Shown here in pieces: positions 3,649-59,570 of a DNA stretch of 64,000 nucleotides. The first letter of the stretch is position 1; each line of letters opens with the position of its first letter. The stretch comes from a virus. The translations under genes were made by a program, and so were the position numbers. A model generated the notes under the pieces. The model worked only from the letters and a program-made list of their open reading frames with translations, had not been told where the DNA came from and did not search any database. The DNA is taken from the IMG/VR virus record IMGVR_UViG_3300022666_000353, positions 1-64,000 of that record; one strand, written 5' to 3'.

Positions 3649-4653
3649 TTAGTCCATCATGTCCAGTGTGGCCTCCCCATAGAACGCTCCTGAAGAGTCG
3701 TCAAGAGGTTGTCGAACCGTCAAATTTCCGGCGTCGCGGCTCAGTTCGATTTTAATTTTCATGGCACCGTCGTTGTTGTATTCTGCGCGAAACACGGTGT
3801 TGGCTTCCTGTGCCGCCTTGGACCCGCCTGCGGCAACCAGTTTCCCTCCGTTCTGTTTAACATCACGTAGTGATGTTAAGGACACCTGAGAAACAAGGAA
3901 GTTTGCAATACCGTACTGTGCCACAAAACTAGAGATTACACGAACCGCGTGGAGTTGTAGTTTATACTCATCCGTTTCGTCCGCGATGTACTGCTGAACG
4001 TGGTCCTCCACCATAATTTTCACGCCCAGGTTTTCTACCAATCGTCTCCACCTGGAGTGCTGCCCGTCAGGACCCGACACAGCGGCGTATCGTAAGTCAC
4101 GTGTGTTCCCCTGGTCAAGGCGTGCACCGTGTATCAGGATAGGCCAGTTATTGAAGTTGGATGTTTCGTCAATTGCATAGTTAATGGCCTCTTGTTGTAC
4201 AGGGGTACGTGTTCTGTACCGCATAAATTTATGCGACAAGTCCAGGTGACGGCACTTCTCTGTACCACACTCCGGGCAGAACGCATCCGCCCTGTGACCC
4301 TGACGCAGTATATAACGGGTGGCGATGTTAGCCAGGATAGTGTCGCGTAATTTCTTGACGGGCATCCCTGACTCCAACATGTCAACATTAACCACCGGTT
4401 TCGTTTTCACGTTGGGGTTCATCATAATGTTGATGATTATGTTTATCCAGAGCGTGGTCTTGCGTTTCTTTTCCTCACCCTGGATAACAATTAACTCTCC
4501 ACTTGGGTCCAGACCATATAGCTCCTGGTCAATGTACTTGATACCGTAAGGGATAAGGTTCTCCCTGTTTTTTACCGGGTCGCCCCAGTCTGTAACACAC
4601 TGGGCAACTAATGCAGACAGCCTCGGGTCGTAAAAGTCGGGTTCTTCTACCAT
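3649..4653 (-). CDS. DnaB/SF4-like helicase, RecA-fold (degenerate Walker A)
   Basis: PYGIKYIDQELYGLDPSGELIVIQGEEKKRKTT, LESGM, VEDHVQ, VSQV, GGSKAAQEA, LSRD; CxxC insert. Confidence 0.7.
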   Translation of the reverse strand: MVEEPDFYDPRLSALVAQCVTDWGDPVKNRENLIPYGIKYIDQELYGLDPSGELIVIQGEEKKRKTTLWINIIINIMMNPNVKTKPVVNVDMLESGMPVKKLRDTILANIATRYILRQGHRADAFCPECGTEKCRHLDLSHKFMRYRTRTPVQQEAINYAIDETSNFNNWPILIHGARLDQGNTRDLRYAAVSGPDGQHSRWRRLVENLGVKIMVEDHVQQYIADETDEYKLQLHAVRVISSFVAQYGIANFLVSQVSLTSLRDVKQNGGKLVAAGGSKAAQEANTVFRAEYNNDGAMKIKIELSRDAGNLTVRQPLDDSSGAFYGEATLDMMD

Positions 4654-19421: not shown

Positions 19422-19502
19422 TGGTCCAGGAAGGAGTCGAACCCTCACGTATGCGGGTGTCTCAACCGTTTCCCCGCCGCACTACCATTGTGCTACTGGA
19501 CC
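19422..19502 (-). tRNA. tRNA-like RNA with 15-nt anticodon loop (identity undetermined)
   Basis: Acceptor GGTCCAG/CTGGACC-A, D arm GCAC-AATGGTA-GTGC, stem GCGGG/CCCGC around GAAACGGTTGAGACA, T arm GAGGG-TTCGACT-CCTTC. Confidence 0.8.
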
Positions 19503-29067: not shown

Positions 29068-29556
29068 CTAGTAGCGGGGTCCTCCACAGTGTTCGCAATA
29101 GACGCGCTCGTCGGGGTTCTCGTGCTCACACCACTGGCAGACGTAGTAGTTGTCGTCACCGCTCCACTTGTGGATGAACGCTACCATCGCGTCGGCCTCT
29201 GTGTCCCATGACAGGTTTCTCGACGCTACTTCCAGTGCCTTTTCTGTGGTCATCAACCCACTCAGGTATTGCTGACCAAACTCAGCCAGCCGTTCGTGCA
29301 GGTCTATACACGCAGGGCAAACCAGGTTGAGGTCGCTGTGCGCGTATATGCGAGTGCCATCGCCATGTTTGTGACTTAAGTCACCAAACTCTGACTCAAA
29401 GCTGTCACACTCGGAGCACGAACCGAACGAGCCACTCACCCAACCGTATCGACCGTTGTAGTACACCCAGGCCCACCACTCACCCTGGTATGAGCCGAAC
29501 TCCTCAAACGCCAGGACCTTTGCGCCTGCCCGTTCCAATGCTTCGCGGTATCCCAT
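29068..29556 (-). CDS. Hypothetical protein with C-terminal RanBP-type Zn finger
   Basis: GSYQGEW...FGSCSECD; CQWCEHEN...CEHCGGPR. Confidence 0.8.
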   Translation of the reverse strand: MGYREALERAGAKVLAFEEFGSYQGEWWAWVYYNGRYGWVSGSFGSCSECDSFESEFGDLSHKHGDGTRIYAHSDLNLVCPACIDLHERLAEFGQQYLSGLMTTEKALEVASRNLSWDTEADAMVAFIHKWSGDDNYYVCQWCEHENPDERVYCEHCGGPRY

Positions 29557-29567
29557 AACTCACCTCC

Positions 29568-29583
29568 AGTCTATATGTTGATT
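29568..29583. repeat. Degenerate 16-bp palindrome, copy 6
   Basis: AGTCTATATGTTGATT abutting SD GGAGG. Confidence 0.6.
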
Positions 29584-29599
29584 AATTTATATAGCGTGG

Positions 29600-29905
29600 T
29601 TACAGGTACTCAGCTTCACCAGCCGCCCGCTTACGTTCGACCTGGCTGCTGCGCTGCAACATCACGGTTTTGACCCGCATCGTGCGGGGGTCAACACAGG
29701 CCAGCACTGTGTCTCCGTTCGACCCATCTGGCAGGCATATCTTGCCTGAAAACGTCTTCACAATGACCATGACCTGACAAGACTGTGACTGAGAAATCAC
29801 GTCCTCGTTCCGGCGTACCGCTTCCAACACCTCAGTCGCGGTGACCACGCCCCTACTCTGAATTTGTTCGCTTGCATGTAACGTCAATTCAATCATCTTC
29901 CACAC
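29600..29905 (-). CDS. DUF4258/RelE-like small RNase-fold protein
   Basis: LTLHASEQIQSRGV...EV...VKTVM pattern. Confidence 0.5.
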   Translation of the reverse strand: MWKMIELTLHASEQIQSRGVVTATEVLEAVRRNEDVISQSQSCQVMVIVKTFSGKICLPDGSNGDTVLACVDPRTMRVKTVMLQRSSQVERKRAAGEAEYL

Positions 29906-42544: not shown

Positions 42545-42572
42545 AACGCACCATCCTTTAAATTAAAAAAGA

Positions 42573-42644
42573 AGCCCCCACCCAGACGTGCGCTGGGTTC
42601 TCCTGATTACAGGTCAGGTGCGTCACTATATACGCTTTAGGGGC
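42573..42644 (-). tRNA. tRNA-Thr(TGT), atypical T-loop and C33
   Basis: CCTGA-CC TGT AA-TCAGG; T arm CCCAG-CGCACGT-CTGGG; acceptor GCCCCTA/TGGGGGC. Confidence 0.75.
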
Positions 42645-42650
42645 AGTCAA

Positions 42651-42722
42651 AGCCGAAGGAGAGATTTGAACTCTCAACCTACCCGATACGAACGGGCTGC
42701 TCTACCGTTGGGCTACTTCGGC
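42651..42722 (-). tRNA. tRNA-Thr(CGT)
   Basis: GCCGAAG/CTTCGGC acceptor; GCCCG-TT CGT AT-CGGGT; GAGAG-TTCAAAT-CTCTC. Confidence 0.9.
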
Positions 42723-43015
42723 GTACGGGTACGGGCATTGCGACAGAGGCTCGTTAGGTAGTGGCCCTAGATTTGTTATGCGCTTCCTGCTGCGGCAAGG
42801 GGAACCACTCGCGCTTCCACCCACTCCGGCTTGTATCCCGGTTTGTACGTCCTTGACCCGTTAGTTTTAAAAATAGGACACAGCGACCTGTGTCCTTCTG
42901 CACCAGGTTTACTACCACCTCACGGATACTGTTTAGCTATTCGACTATCCGCGGTTCATCGAACGTGCTTTAGCAAGGTCTTCTTTGTACTTGAGAAGAC
43001 GAGCCTGGTACATAG

Positions 43016-43083
43016 TAGCGGGGGAGAGGGTCGAACTCTCTTAAGGAAGGTTATGGGCCTGCCGGGTTCCGAACCACCCCGCT
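43016..43083 (-). tRNA. Compact tRNA(CAT) with tRNA-Pyl-like geometry
   Basis: AGCGGGG-T-GGTT(CGG)AACC-C-GGCAGG-CC CAT AA-CCTTCC-TTAA-GAGAG TTCGACC CTCTC-CCCCGCT-A. Confidence 0.75.
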
Positions 43084-43088
43084 TCAAA

Positions 43089-43292
43089 TCAACTAACTTT
43101 TACGTACCTAATTTCTTTTGCTTGTCGTTCTTCCGTCTGTCCTACGTAGTACGCAGCCACAATCAAAGCATCCACATTGGACATGTCCACGGCCTTACCA
43201 TACAACTGACCTGCGGCAATCTTTTCCTTAATGGTCCGTGCCATGAACTCAATCGAAAGTTTCTCTACATCCTGATACGGGCCCATAATCAT
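43089..43292 (-). CDS. Small hypothetical protein inside the RNA cluster
   Basis: SD AGGAG. Confidence 0.6.
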   Translation of the reverse strand: MIMGPYQDVEKLSIEFMARTIKEKIAAGQLYGKAVDMSNVDALIVAAYYVGQTEERQAKEIRYVKVS

Positions 43293-43316
43293 TCTCCTGG
43301 TTTTGCTGGCCTAGAG

Positions 43317-43451
43317 TGGTCATCCAGCGCGGGGTCAGTGCTCGAACCCTTTGTACGGTGCTTCTTCCGTCAGTAGGATTGAACAGCGGGCCTGTTCTCC
43401 CCAGCAAGTCCAGTTGCAACGACTGTCGGCTATCACTGTGTGCCGAATGAC
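43317..43451 (-). ncRNA. Candidate structured RNA ending in CCA
   Basis: 5' GTCATTCGGC pairs with 3' GCTGGATGAC, followed by CA. Confidence 0.45.
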
Positions 43452-43455
43452 TAGG

Positions 43456-43527
43456 CGGGCTGGGAGCGTCTCGAACGCTCACTTCCCGTTTAAACGGCGG
43501 GTGTTCTGCCTAATGAACTTCCAACCC
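43456..43527 (-). tRNA. tRNA-Lys(TTT), variant anticodon arm (G33, C-A 31:39 mismatch)
   Basis: GGGTTGG/CCAGCCC; CCCGC-CG TTT AA-ACGGG; GAGCG-TTCGAGA-CGCTC. Confidence 0.75.
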
Positions 43528-43561
43528 GTGTGGACACAGTCGCCGCTGTGTCCGTTTCGTG

Positions 43562-43921
43562 CTAGTTAATTTCGTGGTACTCCAGCACCGCCACATCGGG
43601 GAACCGGACGTAGCCTTCGTCCGCGTCAAAGTAATACAGTTCTGCCGCGTTCAGCGGGGCAGGCCAACGCTCTTTCCACATCACCACCATTGCGCCCGCC
43701 TCTTCTTCCGTCACCGTGCCGGTGGACGCCAGGTAATTCGCCAGGTTGCGAACCGCACTCAACGCGGCCTCATACTTTTTCTGCGCCCGTTCGAACGTGC
43801 CGATTGCGGTGTTCTGCCACTCCTGCCAGGGGCCGTCATCGGACAGCACCCGCACACCATCTTCAACCACACGGGCCGTGATTTTCTCCGAACACCAATC
43901 TTTCACTACTTCGATATACAC
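43562..43921 (-). CDS. Hypothetical protein inside the RNA cluster
   Basis: SD AGGAGG before GTG. Confidence 0.75.
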   Translation of the reverse strand: MYIEVVKDWCSEKITARVVEDGVRVLSDDGPWQEWQNTAIGTFERAQKKYEAALSAVRNLANYLASTGTVTEEEAGAMVVMWKERWPAPLNAAELYYFDADEGYVRFPDVAVLEYHEIN

Positions 43922-43957
43922 GTGTAATCCTCCTAAACTAGTAGAATAAAGGACCAG

Positions 43958-44051
43958 AGCGGGAGAGTGGACTTGAACCACTACCTCCTCCACTGCCTGT
44001 TTAAGCTACCAGTCACAGTGGCGTGCTGTACCGCACTATACACCACCCCGC
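43958..44051 (-). tRNA. tRNA-like RNA with ~20-nt insertion in the anticodon arm (possibly His GTG)
   Basis: T arm AGTGG-TTCAAGT-CCACT, acceptor GCGGGG/TCCCGC, CCACTG...CAGTGG enclosing TGACTGGTAGCTTAAACAGG. Confidence 0.6.
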
Positions 44052-44099
44052 ATAATAGGGACACGGGCAATCCTTAGTCATGCCGCTGTGTCCCATACC

Positions 44100-44190
44100 G
44101 CCCATCCGTCTTTCCCCGTCCTTCCCCGGTCTGGTTTCCCCTAATCCCTGTTTCCAGGGGAATGGTAGAACTCTCAGTCACGTGATGGGC
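44100..44190 (-). ncRNA. Candidate small structured RNA
   Basis: GCCCATC/GATGGGC closing stem, CCCTG-GAAA-CAGGG GNRA hairpin. Confidence 0.45.
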
Positions 44191-44196
44191 AGTGAG

Positions 44197-44282
44197 TGGT
44201 GACGGCTGGATTTGAACCAGCATTACCCATGTGGGAACCTGTTTTACAGACAAGCGCGACTAACCGTATTCGCATCGTCACC
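44197..44282 (-). tRNA. tRNA-Tyr(GTA)
   Basis: GGTGACG/CGTCACC-A; CTTGT-CT GTA AA-ACAGG; long variable arm; GCTGG-TTCAAAT-CCAGC. Confidence 0.9.
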
Positions 44283-44400
44283 GTAAATAAACTAAATTTT
44301 TGTGGTACACCAAAAGACCAATCTCCGGGGGACTAAGGCGGTCAGACCCTAGTCCCCCTTTACCTGGAGGTTGAAAATGAAGGGGCGGTCAGACCCCTAG

Positions 44401-44474
44401 AGAGCGGGGCAGGGGTTGAACCTGCTACCTCCTGGTTGTCTTACCCAGGGCTCCTACCGCGGAGCTTCCCACTC
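44401..44474 (-). tRNA. tRNA-like RNA, ambiguous anticodon (9-nt loop GTAAGACAA)
   Basis: GAGTGGG/CCCGCTC; D arm GCTC/GAGC; CCTGG/CCAGG; GCAGG-TTCAACC-CCTGC. Confidence 0.65.
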
Positions 44475-44586
44475 TGGTCGAGCGTCCCAGCGTCGTCTGG
44501 GTTAGCCGGTCACGTTGGTGGCCTCCCGCTGAACCCGGCGCGGTACACCTGCCATACCGCTGGCGTCCGTTCACCACATCACTCGA
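44475..44586 (-). ncRNA. tRNA-mimic RNA (acceptor, T-like arm and CCA; long hairpin replaces D and anticodon arms)
   Basis: TCGAGTG/CGCTCGA-CCA; CCCAG-ACGACG-CTGGG; nested GTGGT/GCCAC, GAAC/GTTC, GCGGTA/TACCGC. Confidence 0.5.
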
Positions 44587-44952
44587 AGTAAATGTCCCAG
44601 TCCACAAAGCCCCGTCAGGGTCGGGTATCTAACCTGGATACCACCACTCTATATTTCAAGAGTTTCGATGGGTGGGCGGGCTTATCACTGGTTTGTCCCT
44701 GTCGCTGCCGGTCTGCTTGCCGACTGTCATCACCACTCCGCGCTAAATCCAGGTGACGGAAAGGAGAGATGGTTACTCCTCTGGCGGGCTGTCTTTTCCA
44801 GCGGTCATTGTCCGACTGAATTGTGTCCGGCTACCGAGTTTTTTGATGTGTTGGTAAATGGATTGGGTATGCGCCAAAGAGCCTATCCTCTGTAATAGCT
44901 CCTGATAAGTCACCAACACGTCTCTGACCCGTTCCAGTCAGTCGCAACCAAA

Positions 44953-45024
44953 AGGCACTTGAGTGATTCGAACACTCGTCTGCGCCGTACAACCGGCGCG
45001 TTTTCCCAATTAAACTAAAGTGCC
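44953..45024 (-). tRNA. tRNA-like RNA with 6- or 8-nt anticodon loop
   Basis: GGCACTT/AAGTGCC; GCGCCG-GTTGTA-CGGCGC; GAGTG-TTCGAAT-CACTC. Confidence 0.75.
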
Positions 45025-45114
45025 GTCGTCCCTACGTTCCCGTCATTACGGGTCTATGGGTTGCCTCAGTCCCAACTCTGGAGGTGAACATGACTGGCCA
45101 CACCTGGCCAAGGC

Positions 45115-45187
45115 GGTGCCGGGGGGGAGTTGAACCCACAACCTCCTGTTTTGGAGACAGGTGCTCTGCCAATTGAGCCTCCGGCCC
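45115..45187 (-). tRNA. tRNA-Trp(CCA)
   Basis: GCTC-AATTGGCA-GAGC D arm; CCTGT-CT CCA AA-ACAGG; GTTCAACTC T loop. Confidence 0.85.
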
Positions 45188-45190
45188 GTA

Positions 45191-45400
45191 AGATTGGGAC
45201 ACGGTGAGGTGCCTGAGAATAGCGCCGCGCCAGTTATTCTTCGTTCGTTTATCGGCCATCTCCTGGACCCTCCTGGTACTGGATGCGCCCCCGCAGTGCC
45301 ACGTACTACCAGGATTAGAGCATTCCGACTACCCACGACACCGAGGCCACTCACCTAACTTACAGGTCGGTGCGGCTGACACAACCCGTGTCCCAAATCT
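45191..45400 (-). ncRNA. Unknown ~210-nt structured RNA
   Basis: 11-bp closing helix TTGGGACACGG/CCGTGTCCCAA; internal CCTGGTA/TACCAGG hairpin. Confidence 0.55.
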
Positions 45401-45477
45401 TTAAATTAAGTTTTCTTCCCAACGCACCTCCCACGGGTTCTATGGGTTGCCTCTGTCCCTTCTTGTCCAACTCGCAG

Positions 45478-45740
45478 TGGACCCGGTGGCATCGAAGCCA
45501 CGTCACTCAGCGCCTTTAGTTCTCCTGATGTAGAGTCATTCCCGTTATATCCTGCGGGTCAGGTCTTACCACCCCCACCACCTGGTTACTTACGCGAAGG
45601 CCAGGACTTCGTCAGACACAGGTGCTACGATAACTTTGCACCCAAACAACTGTTCAGCTAAAGAGACTTCGTCTTTATTGGCTTTTGTTTTTTGTGACTC
45701 TCGGATTAGTTTGACACCAAGCTCGAAACCTTGCGGGCCC
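45478..45740 (-). ncRNA. ssrA: tmRNA, compact, tag (A)ANKDEVSLAEQLFGCKVIVAPVSDEVLAFA*
   Basis: 5' GGGCCCG-CAAGGTTTCGA; 3' GAC-GTGGC-TTCGAT-GCCAC-CGGGTCC-A with G3-U70 and A73; tag frame 45682-45590. Confidence 0.88.
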
Positions 45741-45791
45741 TTAGTTGCCGGTCTCTGCCGGCTGTCACGGTGTCTGGTTGGCACATTTCCT

Positions 45792-46235
45792 TGACGCGTT
45801 GTGGCATACGATTAACGCCTTCACTCGACCGCCTCATGCTCTGTGTGTCACCGTTTACACGTTTAGGTTTAACAGTTCCGGCTATGACGGCGTCGCTCTC
45901 GCGCAAAGGCTCTGAGGGCGTTACACGGGCGTCCAGGAATACTCTCGGACAGTCTCACCCTATCCTGTCAAACCCGCAGTTCCTCTCGTTGTGCGGGCAA
46001 ACCCGTGCACTAGCACTGTTGTAAAGTCTCGAACCACACAGTTCTTTGGAACTCCACCTGTTACCAGGTATAGAAGAAGACCGCGTAGTCGTCTAACAGC
46101 AGCGATTGTTTCCCTGTGGTTCTTACCAACTCCTCGCGTGTCCCGCTGTGTTAGGCTTGATTTCAGGTTGCGCCTCCCTACTCTCTTCCACTCGCCACTC
46201 TTTAAAGGATGACGTGCTAAGTCAACCTCCCGTCA
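45792..46235 (-). ncRNA. ~444-nt structured RNA built on a 23S rRNA H43/H44 (uL11-binding)-like core
   Basis: 5' TGACGGGAGGTTGACTTAGCACGTCATCCTTTAAAGAGTGGC pairs with 3' GCCACAACGCGTCA. Confidence 0.7.
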
Positions 46236-46349
46236 GTCTCAGCCGGATGTGACCACCTGGTGTGTTATTACTACAAACACCACCAGGCTCATCCAAATAA
46301 TATACGGTTGTTAATGTGCTATTAAAAACATTTTATATTTCTATGTATA

Positions 46350-46378
46350 ATTATAGCGCGTTAACCACCAGAAGTCAA
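46350..46378 (-). promoter_or_regulatory. sigma70-type promoter at the head of the ncRNA/tRNA operon
   Basis: TTGACT-17-TATAAT. Confidence 0.85.
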
Positions 46379-58889: not shown

Positions 58890-59570
58890 CATTATTTAAA
58901 ATTGTTAGGTTGGTCAGTAAACCTAACGCACATACAGCAACACACCTCGCTGGGTGGGCCAAGTTTCTGCGGAAGCGCGTAGGCTCCCCCCGGGAAGCGG
59001 CTGACGCGGCACCGGTTCCTGTACTTCCTCGTTATCACGATAGTGCAGAGACAAACTGGCGGTACGTTGACTGGGCTTTGCCGCCCGCTCAACATCACAG
59101 GCTCACCCCAGAGTGAGCGAAACGAGTCTGTGTCCAACTTAAAGCTCACAAACCACCCGAACCCCCCGTCCTGCTTGGGGGCGTAGCGAAGACCCGATGA
59201 CACAACGTCGGTCACCTGATAACGGCAGACCTGGGCAGGTCAATATAAGCTACGCTTTGAATGCAAACATTCTTAACCTCCCCCGGATAGGGGGATTCTA
59301 CCTACCTGCCGAGGTGACGAGTACGTTATACCCGACGCAGTACGTCATATCTGTATAAAGGAACTAACAGATATAAGACACAGGGCGGCAGGTGTGAAGA
59401 TACCCATACTGCGCTGTGACTATCTTATACAGTTAGTTTCATTAGCACATTTATTCTAAGATAGTACGAATGAATAATAGGCCGCTGTGTAATCTTATTA
59501 TTATTTTTATGTACCGTCAGGTAGATTGTTACACAGTCAACCCCTGTGACTAAGGGATAGTTATACCTAT
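58890..59570 (+). other. Hairpin-dense non-coding tract (long leader, ncRNA or origin)
   Basis: No credible ORF; about nine stems seen by eye. Confidence 0.55.

Follow-up and report, generated by a model that had tools for sequence, protein, structure and literature searches.

A promoter-headed phage RNA array with a divergent member of an RNA family resembling the GTPase-associated centre of 23S rRNA

Introduction

Phage transfer RNA (tRNA) arrays are usually read as codon supplements. Some of them, such as those of the mycobacteriophages of cluster C1 and of the Xanthomonas jumbo phage XacN1, are clusters of co-oriented RNA genes that include a transfer-messenger RNA (tmRNA), and the large, ornate GOLLD and ROOL RNAs are also located beside phage tRNAs. 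Here, we describe an array that likewise combines co-oriented tRNA and tRNA-like genes with a tmRNA-like gene and a large non-coding RNA, but in which non-decoding RNAs probably outnumber the decoding ones. It lies in an uncultured, temperate phage, a 93.8-kb provirus (IMG/VR record IMGVR_UViG_3300022666_000353), the first 64 kb of which are referred to as the window throughout. The large RNA, 371 nt in length, belongs to a family of phage RNAs that imitate the GTPase-associated centre (GAC) of 23S ribosomal RNA (rRNA), which comprises the top of helix 42 (H42), H43 and H44 (Escherichia coli nt 1051-1108) and forms the uL11/thiostrepton site.

An RNA that copies a protein-binding site of rRNA off the ribosome is a principle familiar from ribosomal-protein mRNA leaders, among which the L10 leader copies the neighbouring, L10-binding part of H42-H44. 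As for phage tRNAs, changes in the anticodon loop have been proposed to let them escape host anticodon nucleases (van den Berg et al., 2023, PMC10264068; Azam et al., 2024, PMC11555353). An earlier note, made by a model from the letters of the window alone, had described the block as an RNA toolkit aimed at the host translation apparatus.

Results

A 371-nt RNA imitates H42-H44 of 23S rRNA

The first RNA behind the promoter of the array (Table 1) resembles a confined part of 23S rRNA. When the 603-nt leader region was compared with the whole E. coli 23S rRNA, the best local match fell on nt 1041-1088 with 36 of 48 positions identical, and its alignment score of 21 was reached by none of 200 dinucleotide shuffles (14.4±1.5). 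The RNA is closed by two helices (46247-46241 with 45883-45877, and 46235-46230 with 45890-45885), which enclose an H43-like hairpin (46227-46207), the junction UUUAAAGAGU (46206-46197) and an H44-like hairpin CGC-GAGA-GCG (45903-45894), the last separated from the junction by an insert of about 270 nt. The unconstrained minimum free energy (MFE) structure of 46247-45877 is exactly the layout of the family described below, including the closing pairs UGACGG/CCGUCA and UCCGGCU/AGCCGGA. The largest of the RNAs proposed in the earlier note, at 46235-45792, thus proved to be a real structured RNA, whose homologous borders are 46247-45877. A 3' end at 45820-45792 was rejected, since 45909-45877 keeps the family spacing, aligns with the closest family member and is the MFE solution. 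We also rejected a true 23S gene or a captured fragment of one, given that only about 48 nt are similar and no large-subunit rRNA model matched. GOLLD, ROOL and other large Rfam RNAs gave no match at E<=10 in 45741-46345 or at E<=1 in the array.

A covarying family of GAC mimics in phage tRNA arrays

A search pattern admitting both the rRNA and the window forms, GTTGNCTTAGN{5,7}CATCNTTTAAAGA, matched 47 IMG/VR loci, two of which are genuine 23S genes and 45 of which are non-23S loci in phage DNA, with the 23S likeness confined to 30-44 nt. The members share a layout consisting of a closing helix, GA-N, GUUGGCUUAGAAGCAGCCAUC, N', UUUAAAGAGU, an insert of 50-340 nt, YUUUGGCGUAAYAGCACA and the closing helix, and they measure 105-410 nt, the window copy being among the longer ones. 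In an alignment of nine short members (A4), all 163 of the 163 cells of the 21-pair structure are standard pairs. Nine pairs of the family core are changed on both sides, values that none of 500 shuffles reached, and slid pairing partners gave only 21-53% pairing. A covariance model (CM) built from the same nine-member alignment, R1, scored every family locus at 51-177 bits and a genuine 23S gene at 54.5 bits; the CM alignment A7 was excluded from the pair counts because of spurious 3' ends on members with long inserts. An Rfam scan of 18 family loci found tRNA genes in every one of them and no family that covers the GAC motif. Neither a paper nor an Rfam model was found in our search of the literature and of Rfam. 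The GAC mimics are thus a covarying RNA family for which we found no published description.

Members also occur in cultured phages. The Pseudomonas phage pf16 (KU873925.1, about 29414-29606; locus L162, 1491-1683) carries a full member of 81.6 bits between tRNA-Asn and tRNA-Pro. The motif is unannotated in the GenBank records of pf16, XacN1, GAP32, Astolliot, UNO-G1W1, Aeromonas phage 4_4572 and Paenibacillus phage Pd_22F, and in Milchi a 'hypothetical protein' is annotated over it; besides KU873925.1, the records concerned are AP018399.1, JN882285.1, PQ464597.1, OM982621.1, PP551948.2, MK813943.1 and MZ092003.1. One IMG/VR locus (L115) contains a GOLLD RNA (685-1176, 164.8 bits) and a GAC mimic (4557-4586) 3.4 kb apart in one tRNA array. 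The two genuine 23S genes are located on contigs classified as viral in IMG/VR (L144 and L125), which reflects either host flank or misclassification.

The window copy keeps the scaffold and differs in both apical loops

Searching the 64 kb of the window with R1 gave one convincing match (E < 1), at 32.5 bits and E 2.8e-6, the alignment of which is correct for the 5' half only. The closest member, L119, shows 87% identity over 52 nt, and the likeness runs past the rRNA-like part into GSCGAGUGGAAGAGAG after the junction. In the alignment with L119, the 3' element falls on 45909-45891 (CCUUUG-CGC-GAGA-GCG-ACG), and CCGUCA and AGCCGGA come after it. The gene immediately before the L119 mimic is a tRNA-Thr(UGU), a homologue of the window's Thr(UGU)-derived RNA with the shortened anticodon loop (Table 1). 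A second, degenerate mimic behind that window RNA, as the synteny could suggest, was rejected, as only a 10-nt match and no R1 match was found there. A motif scan for the subfamily of L119 and the window found L119 alone in the viral collection and nothing in metagenomes.

Compared with the family, in which the H43-like stem is GUUGGC/GCCAUC with a U·U mismatch and a covarying flanking pair N-N', the stem of the window RNA (GGUUGAC/GUCAUCC) has a G-C pair replaced by A-U on both sides, keeps the U·U and has G-C as its N-N' pair, and the junction UUUAAAGAGU is identical. The H43 loop is UUAGCAC, 7 nt in length, where all 45 other phage copies matched by the search pattern have a loop of 9 nt (UUAGARGYA in the family). 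The 3' element CCUUUG-CGCGAGAGCG-ACG keeps the 13-nt length and the position of its family counterpart; in H44, both pairs are flipped (G-C/C-G to C-G/G-C) and a C-G pair with GAGA stands in for the GUAAYA hexaloop, with the spacing unchanged. In published GAC structures, the deleted bases of the H43 loop and the flipped pairs of H44 would correspond to partners in the base triples that build the uL11/thiostrepton pocket. Because these very bases are altered, the window copy would be either retargeted or no longer functional. By its sequence and predicted fold, we regard the 371-nt RNA as a divergent, enlarged member of the GAC-mimic family with remodelled apical loops.

Nine tRNA bodies, five of them with abnormal anticodon loops

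Rfam and ARAGORN together bore out the nine tRNA or tRNA-like genes counted in the earlier note, five of which score above the Rfam threshold. Eight of the nine bodies have a T arm with a 5-bp stem (four of five pairs in tRNA-Trp) and a TTCRA loop on the minus strand, and the canonical T-arm pattern was found in none of the spacers. None of the true tRNA genes encodes CCA. A 7-nt anticodon loop with U33 is present only in tRNA-Trp, tRNA-Tyr, tRNA-Thr(CGU) and the His-like RNA. The other five, namely tRNA-Met, both Thr(UGU)-derived RNAs, the Lys-like and the Ser-like RNA, combine abnormal anticodon loops with intact bodies. Among 400 distinct tRNAs of other fetched phage loci, 383 have U33 and the loop length is 7 nt throughout, a baseline biased by the fact that ARAGORN misses deviant tRNAs. 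The stems of the odd tRNA-like RNAs are intact, with z scores of the folding energy from -2.3 to -4.3; the Ser-like RNA has a canonical T arm, a z score of -3.0 and 12.1 bits with model R2. From the intact acceptor and T arms, it is reasonable to infer that the RNAs of the array could be released by RNase P/Z-type processing.

The Thr(UGU)-derived RNA with C33 at the end of the array departs furthest from a decoding tRNA. Its anticodon loop is CCUGUAA, its T loop CGCACGU and its D loop UAUAUAGUGA. In a homologue from the distant phage G005, both bases are exchanged in 10 of the 21 pairs and pairing is still 100%, and the two RNAs have the loops CCUGUAA, CGCANGU and UAUAUAGUGA in common. Because these pairs are compensated and the odd loops are identical in a distant phage, the RNA is under selection. 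Its nearest canonical kin is the tRNA-Thr(UGU) of phage G002, which has normal loops. Judged by its sequence, it is a tRNA-Thr derivative lacking U33 and the G18G19/TΨC elbow signature. Pattern scans with the odd tRNA loops retrieved G005 only, plus two chance matches. As for the remaining deviants, the acceptor and T stems of the other Thr(UGU)-derived RNA are compensated relative to its homologue beside the L119 mimic, and the window tRNA-Met is homologous to the AGCGGG...CCCGCUAC tRNA-Met of relatives, with C33 in the window and U33 there.

Abnormal anticodon loops, either of 8-9 nt or without U33, could in principle serve quadruplet or frameshift decoding or stop suppression of phage genes. 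Expanded anticodon loops are the classic form of frameshift suppressors, and alternative drawings give loops of 9 nt in the Lys-like and Ser-like RNAs and of 8 nt in the shortened-loop Thr(UGU)-derived RNA. The phage open reading frames (ORFs), however, are open under table 11 across the window, and no shifty sites or in-frame stops turned up, although no search was aimed at them. Moreover, one loop is shortened, and the C33 Thr derivative also lacks the T-/D-loop elbow signature needed on the ribosome. We therefore regard a recoding role as highly improbable.

A small tmRNA-like gene

The tmRNA of the earlier note corresponds to a 264-nt tmRNA-like gene, although its Rfam score lies below the cut-off. 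The Rfam tmRNA model (RF00023) matches both ends through the tRNA-like domain and leaves the middle 218 nt unaligned. This domain has a 7-bp acceptor with G3·U70, a T arm and a 5' GGG...UUCGA. The tag frame has the Ala resume codon GCC and ends in ANKDEVSLAEQLFGCKVIVAPVSDEVLAFA*; the predicted tag ANKDEV...VLAFA would have a hydrophobic tail and, with 30 aa, be unusually long. At a length of 264 nt, the gene must lack some of the pseudoknots PK1-PK4.

Layout of the array

The TTGACT-17-TATAAT promoter that had been placed at the head of the array is indeed present at 46378-46350 on the minus strand. The array follows it over 3.77 kb on the same strand and is closed by a U-run at about 42565. 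Approximately 18% of its length is tRNA-like, 7% tmRNA, 10% the 371-nt RNA and 15% ORF, and about 50% (roughly 1.9 kb) is other spacer. The array is thus an RNA gene array, as the earlier note had it, but is not purely non-coding because two ORFs led by Shine-Dalgarno (SD) sequences make up the 15%. No Pfam or PHROG family was found for either ORF, and the 120-aa protein matched only itself among 5.8 billion proteins. A terminator-like hairpin, GGACACAG-GUCG-CUGUGUCC, with a U-run lies inside the array at 42896-42875 on the minus strand. A 22-codon ATG frame (MYQARLLKYKEDLAKARSMNRG) at 43014-42946 on the same strand starts 1 base after tRNA-Met without an SD sequence; located within the three-way-junction RNA, it is probably non-coding.

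Table 1. Features of the RNA array in the order of the minus strand, with positions in the window.
Feature	Position	Strand	Evidence
Sigma-70-type promoter TTGACT-17-TATAAT	46350-46378	-	11/12 to consensus, best site in region
Leader hairpin with 13-bp stem, behind the promoter and ahead of the first RNA	46253-46287	-	fold
371-nt RNA imitating 23S H42-H44 (GAC)	45877-46247	-	23S alignment, CM R1, MFE
136-nt spacer before tmRNA, short hairpin at end	45741-45876	-	z = 0.04, no family or homologue
Small tmRNA-like gene, 264 nt	45477-45740	-	ARAGORN; Rfam tmRNA 25.3 bits
Spacer closed by 14-bp long-range helix on GGGACAC motif	45191-45400	-	z -1.3
tRNA-Trp(CCA), canonical	45115-45187	-	Rfam 52.8 bits, ARAGORN
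tRNA-Thr(UGU)-derived RNA, 1-nt anticodon-loop deletion (6-nt loop)	44953-45024	-	Rfam 49.7 bits
478-nt spacer (holds 44782-44945 and 44475-44586)	44475-44952	-	z -1.7 and -1.0; no homologue, no rRNA likeness
Ser-like tRNA-like RNA, intact stems, 9-nt loop	44400-44474	-	ARAGORN -ps80 only
Two hairpins with direct repeat CTAGGG(G)TCTGACCGCC	44283-44399	-	z -2.75
tRNA-Tyr(GUA), canonical class II	44196-44282	-	Rfam 47.4 bits, ARAGORN
Structured spacer: stem-loop 44190-44100 and GGGACAC...GUGUCCC hairpin 44095-44059	44052-44195	-	z -3.8
His-like 95-nt tRNA-like RNA, long variable arm, GUG 'anticodon'	43957-44051	-	ARAGORN; canonical T arm; z -2.3
120-aa ORF, AGGAGG-7-GTG	43562-43924	-	strong SD, orphan protein
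Lys(UUU)-like tRNA-like RNA, G33 or 9-nt loop	43454-43527	-	ARAGORN; R2 30.7 bits; z -3.4
67-aa ORF, AGGAGA-6-ATG	43089-43292	-	SD
tRNA-Met(CAU) with C33	43015-43083	-	ARAGORN only
Three-way-junction RNA in tRNA-Met trailer, terminator at end	42868-43014	-	z -4.35; 42897-43014 -2.95
tRNA-Thr(CGU), canonical	42651-42722	-	Rfam 62.5 bits, ARAGORN
Non-canonical tRNA-Thr(UGU)-derived RNA, C33, then U-run	42573-42644	-	Rfam 39.4 bits

No homologues found for the other spacers

The earlier note had counted at least six unknown structured RNAs among the spacers, each closed by a terminal helix and three ending in CCA. Only the 371-nt RNA was confirmed as such; the other six have no homologues and mostly unexceptional energies. 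The z scores of the seven proposed RNAs are 0.0 (45792-46235), -1.3 (45191-45400), -1.7 (44782-44945), -1.0 (44475-44586), -2.3 (44100-44190), -1.2 (43317-43451) and +0.9 (42725-42860), the last folding worse than its shuffles, as compared with -1.55 to +0.66 for coding controls. The terminal helices are present in the minimum-energy folds, but the energies are unexceptional against these controls. Likewise, three of the ends do read CCA, but the ends were freely chosen, and the true tRNA genes do not encode CCA. Searches of the phage records and of IMG/VR, the pattern scans made in metagenomes and a comparison with 1.9 Mb of phage loci bearing tRNA arrays yielded no homologue of the spacers, nor was any translated similarity detected. 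Resemblance of the other spacers to E. coli 16S, 23S or 5S rRNA was not significant, and we rejected them as rRNA mimics. We also rejected decayed tRNAs, as weak ARAGORN matches were not in excess over the opposite strand, and a cloverleaf CM run with filters off found no relic.

Three spacers stand out by their z scores: 42897-43014 (-2.95), 44283-44399 (-2.75) and 44052-44195 (-3.8), the last directly before the next tRNA-like gene. These values, which lie beyond the shuffles, would fit a set in which most or all spacers are separate, new functional structured RNAs, each freed by tRNA-type processing. The 14-bp helix that closes 45191-45400 and a 24-nt motif repeated after the tmRNA and after tRNA-Trp point in the same direction, and one 'unknown' spacer did prove to be a real RNA family. 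However, no homologue was found for any other spacer in the collections named above, most of the proposed RNAs have z scores between -1.7 and +0.9, and their ends, CCA included, were freely chosen. Part of the stability of the standout spacers is owed to hairpins built on the over-represented GGACACAG motif, and the strong folds are partly hairpins of this or of the terminator type. We consider such a complete set of new RNAs quite unlikely.

The 24-nt motif (GGGACNGAGGCAACCCATAGA) occurs at 45436-45459 and 45050-45073 on the minus strand, the two copies being 92% identical; they have no shared fold, and a pattern scan gave no new relative. The word GAGGCAACCC recurs within the insert of L138, the shortest GAC mimic. 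The GGACACAGCG motif has 26 copies in the window at one mismatch or fewer, as against 4.6 expected, most of them single copies within ORFs. The genome has six inverted pairs of the motif spaced by no more than 260 nt, four of them in the array at distances of 4-181 nt (42876/42895, 43532/43553, 44059/44093 and 45197/45393) and two outside it, 135 and 207 nt apart. Twice, the 3' arm of such a pair ends 6-8 nt before a tRNA-like gene. The inverted pairs could be RNA hairpins or operator-like DNA palindromes.

Phage context and relatives

The window has a GC content of 52% and encodes a family-A DNA polymerase, a ribonucleotide reductase (RNR), ThyX, a large terminase (TerL) and a portal protein. 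TerL is about 25% identical to that of the nearest cultured phage, and the phage is distant from all cultured phages; the nearest non-self RNR among 5.8 billion proteins has 69% identity. An RNR-profile scan retrieved 75 loci, including four complete relatives (G001, G002, G004 and G005), which are uncultured, have genomes of 81-94 kb with 37-41% GC and possess arrays of 18-30 canonical tRNAs (45-74 bits) without tmRNA. The spacers showed no similarity to these four relatives by blastn or tblastn, and R1 found no GAC mimic in the RNR relatives. When the whole array was searched against 50,697 phage records with megablast and blastn, only tRNA-Trp was matched, and a related-locus search with the 120-aa ORF, the 252-aa neighbour and RNR found no relative.

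Array gaps of G002, G004 and G005 can be aligned with one another (61% over 274 nt, 66% over 95 nt; L008/L090 1118-1396 with L097 8051-8899, and L090 146-1031 with L104 1809-2361) and may contain further conserved array RNAs or unrecognised tRNAs. Outside the array, the window carries an EGFOA RNA (RF02955) above the gathering score at 59150-59255 on the plus strand, between the terminase and portal genes, and a lone tRNA at 19422-19502 on the minus strand (Rfam 49.8 bits) that ARAGORN missed. The anticodon stem of the latter, GCGGG/CCCGC, closes a 15-nt loop, so that here too an intact body bears a disrupted loop. At a comparable place, related phages have a lone canonical tRNA-Arg(UCU).

Discussion

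The block is probably a tRNA-array-type RNA operon of the phage aimed at translation or at tRNA-targeting defences, although partly degenerate. The toolkit of the earlier note stands insofar as the array is headed by a promoter and its recognisable members, the tRNAs, the tmRNA and the GAC mimic, all concern translation; for the other spacers, it is unproven. The consensus sigma-70 promoter would drive one precursor, probably reading through the internal terminator. The precursor would yield four decoder tRNAs of the ordinary kind (Trp, Tyr, Thr(CGU) and Met with C33), a set of tRNA-shaped RNAs with intact stems and abnormal anticodon loops, a minimal tmRNA and the 371-nt RNA, whose two ends are predicted to fold into a copy of the 23S GAC, with the two orphan ORFs presumably riding along. 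The tRNA-shaped RNAs are most likely non-decoding look-alikes, which could divert tRNA-targeting defences as decoys or withstand them as nuclease-proof stand-ins, or could provide punctuation for RNase P/Z. The members of the GAC-mimic family most likely act off the ribosome by imitating the uL11/factor-docking site. As both apical loops of the window mimic are remodelled, its partner may differ or be lost.

Several observations weigh against an operon of this kind. The tmRNA-like gene scores 25.3 bits against a gathering cut-off of 47, the internal terminator at 42896-42875 may split the operon, and about half of the array has no homologue and energies like those of coding controls. The mimic is the lowest CM scorer of its family (32.5 against 51-177 bits) and, without both signature loops, could be a decaying copy. 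Related phages have 18-30 canonical tRNAs, as opposed to about four here, which fits the erosion of an ancestral array. Such erosion is a serious rival. A temperate phage in a new host would be losing an ancestral array of decoder tRNAs, and the odd tRNAs, the tmRNA, the loop-damaged mimic and the spacers would be pseudogenes and debris that the old promoter still transcribes. Only four or five tRNAs of the window exceed 47 bits, most spacer z scores lie within the coding-control range, and the 120-aa ORF is an orphan, all of which agree with loss. Neutral decay should break stems, however, whereas the acceptor and T stems are complete in each of the five deviant tRNAs, and the C33 Thr derivative keeps its odd loops together with 10 compensated pairs across two distant phages. 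Furthermore, the flips in H44 of the mimic are compensated, its whole layout is the MFE, the promoter is still at consensus, and no tRNA relics were found in the spacers by the cloverleaf CM. We consider such erosion possible but not probable; part of the roughly 1.9 kb of spacer may nevertheless be decayed sequence.

A bolder extension of the preferred reading, a partly degenerate operon concerned with translation or tRNA-targeting defences, would take all its products as one coordinated set of counter-measures. The mimic would have been retargeted from uL11 to a new partner, for instance a defence or stress factor reading that ribosomal site; the tRNA bodies, among them the conserved Thr derivative with C33 and the odd elbow, would be dedicated decoys for nucleases that target tRNAs; and several orphan spacers would be new RNAs freed by RNase P/Z. 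We regard this version as unlikely.

The window mimic is a natural variant of its family in which the scaffold is kept and the two site-defining loops have changed jointly, and it thus provides a ready-made comparison for what the GAC mimics bind. This question could be addressed at the bench with the unannotated canonical members of cultured phages such as pf16, XacN1 and GAP32. Moreover, the maintenance of the C33 Thr derivative by selection in two distant phages suggests that some tRNA-shaped RNAs have roles other than decoding.

Compared with the arrays of the cluster C1 phages and XacN1, the array described here has few decoders (about four), and most of its tRNA bodies are non-canonical. 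It also differs from arrays bearing GOLLD or ROOL, neither of which was matched here at E<=10. The nuclease-evading phage tRNAs and the tRNA-like RNAs of this array share changes focused on the anticodon loop of a retained body, but the published cases remain decoders that carry point changes (van den Berg et al., 2023, PMC10264068; Azam et al., 2024, PMC11555353), whereas here the loop length is altered or U33 is lost, so that decoding is doubtful. In the C33 Thr derivative, the T-loop and D-loop signature is lost as well. The ribosomal-protein mRNA leaders are cis-regulatory elements of host operons, whereas the window RNA stands alone without a downstream ribosomal-protein gene.

The closest likeness remains that to the GAC itself. 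The window RNA has the H43 stem with its U·U, the loop start UUAG, the junction UUUAAAG, the counterpart of G1087-C1102, and a short H44 hairpin behind which an H42-like helix closes the structure. Unlike the GAC, it is a free-standing phage gene with about 270 nt inserted in the 5' strand of H44, a 7-nt instead of a 9-nt H43 loop, flipped H44 pairs and a C-G pair with GAGA in place of the hexaloop GUAAUA. With the phage GAC mimics, it has in common the layout P1-GA-N-H43-N'-UUUAAAGAGU-insert-YUUUG-H44-AC-P1 and the setting in a tRNA array, to which it adds an outer helix with a GAGAC bulge, thereby resembling more of H42.

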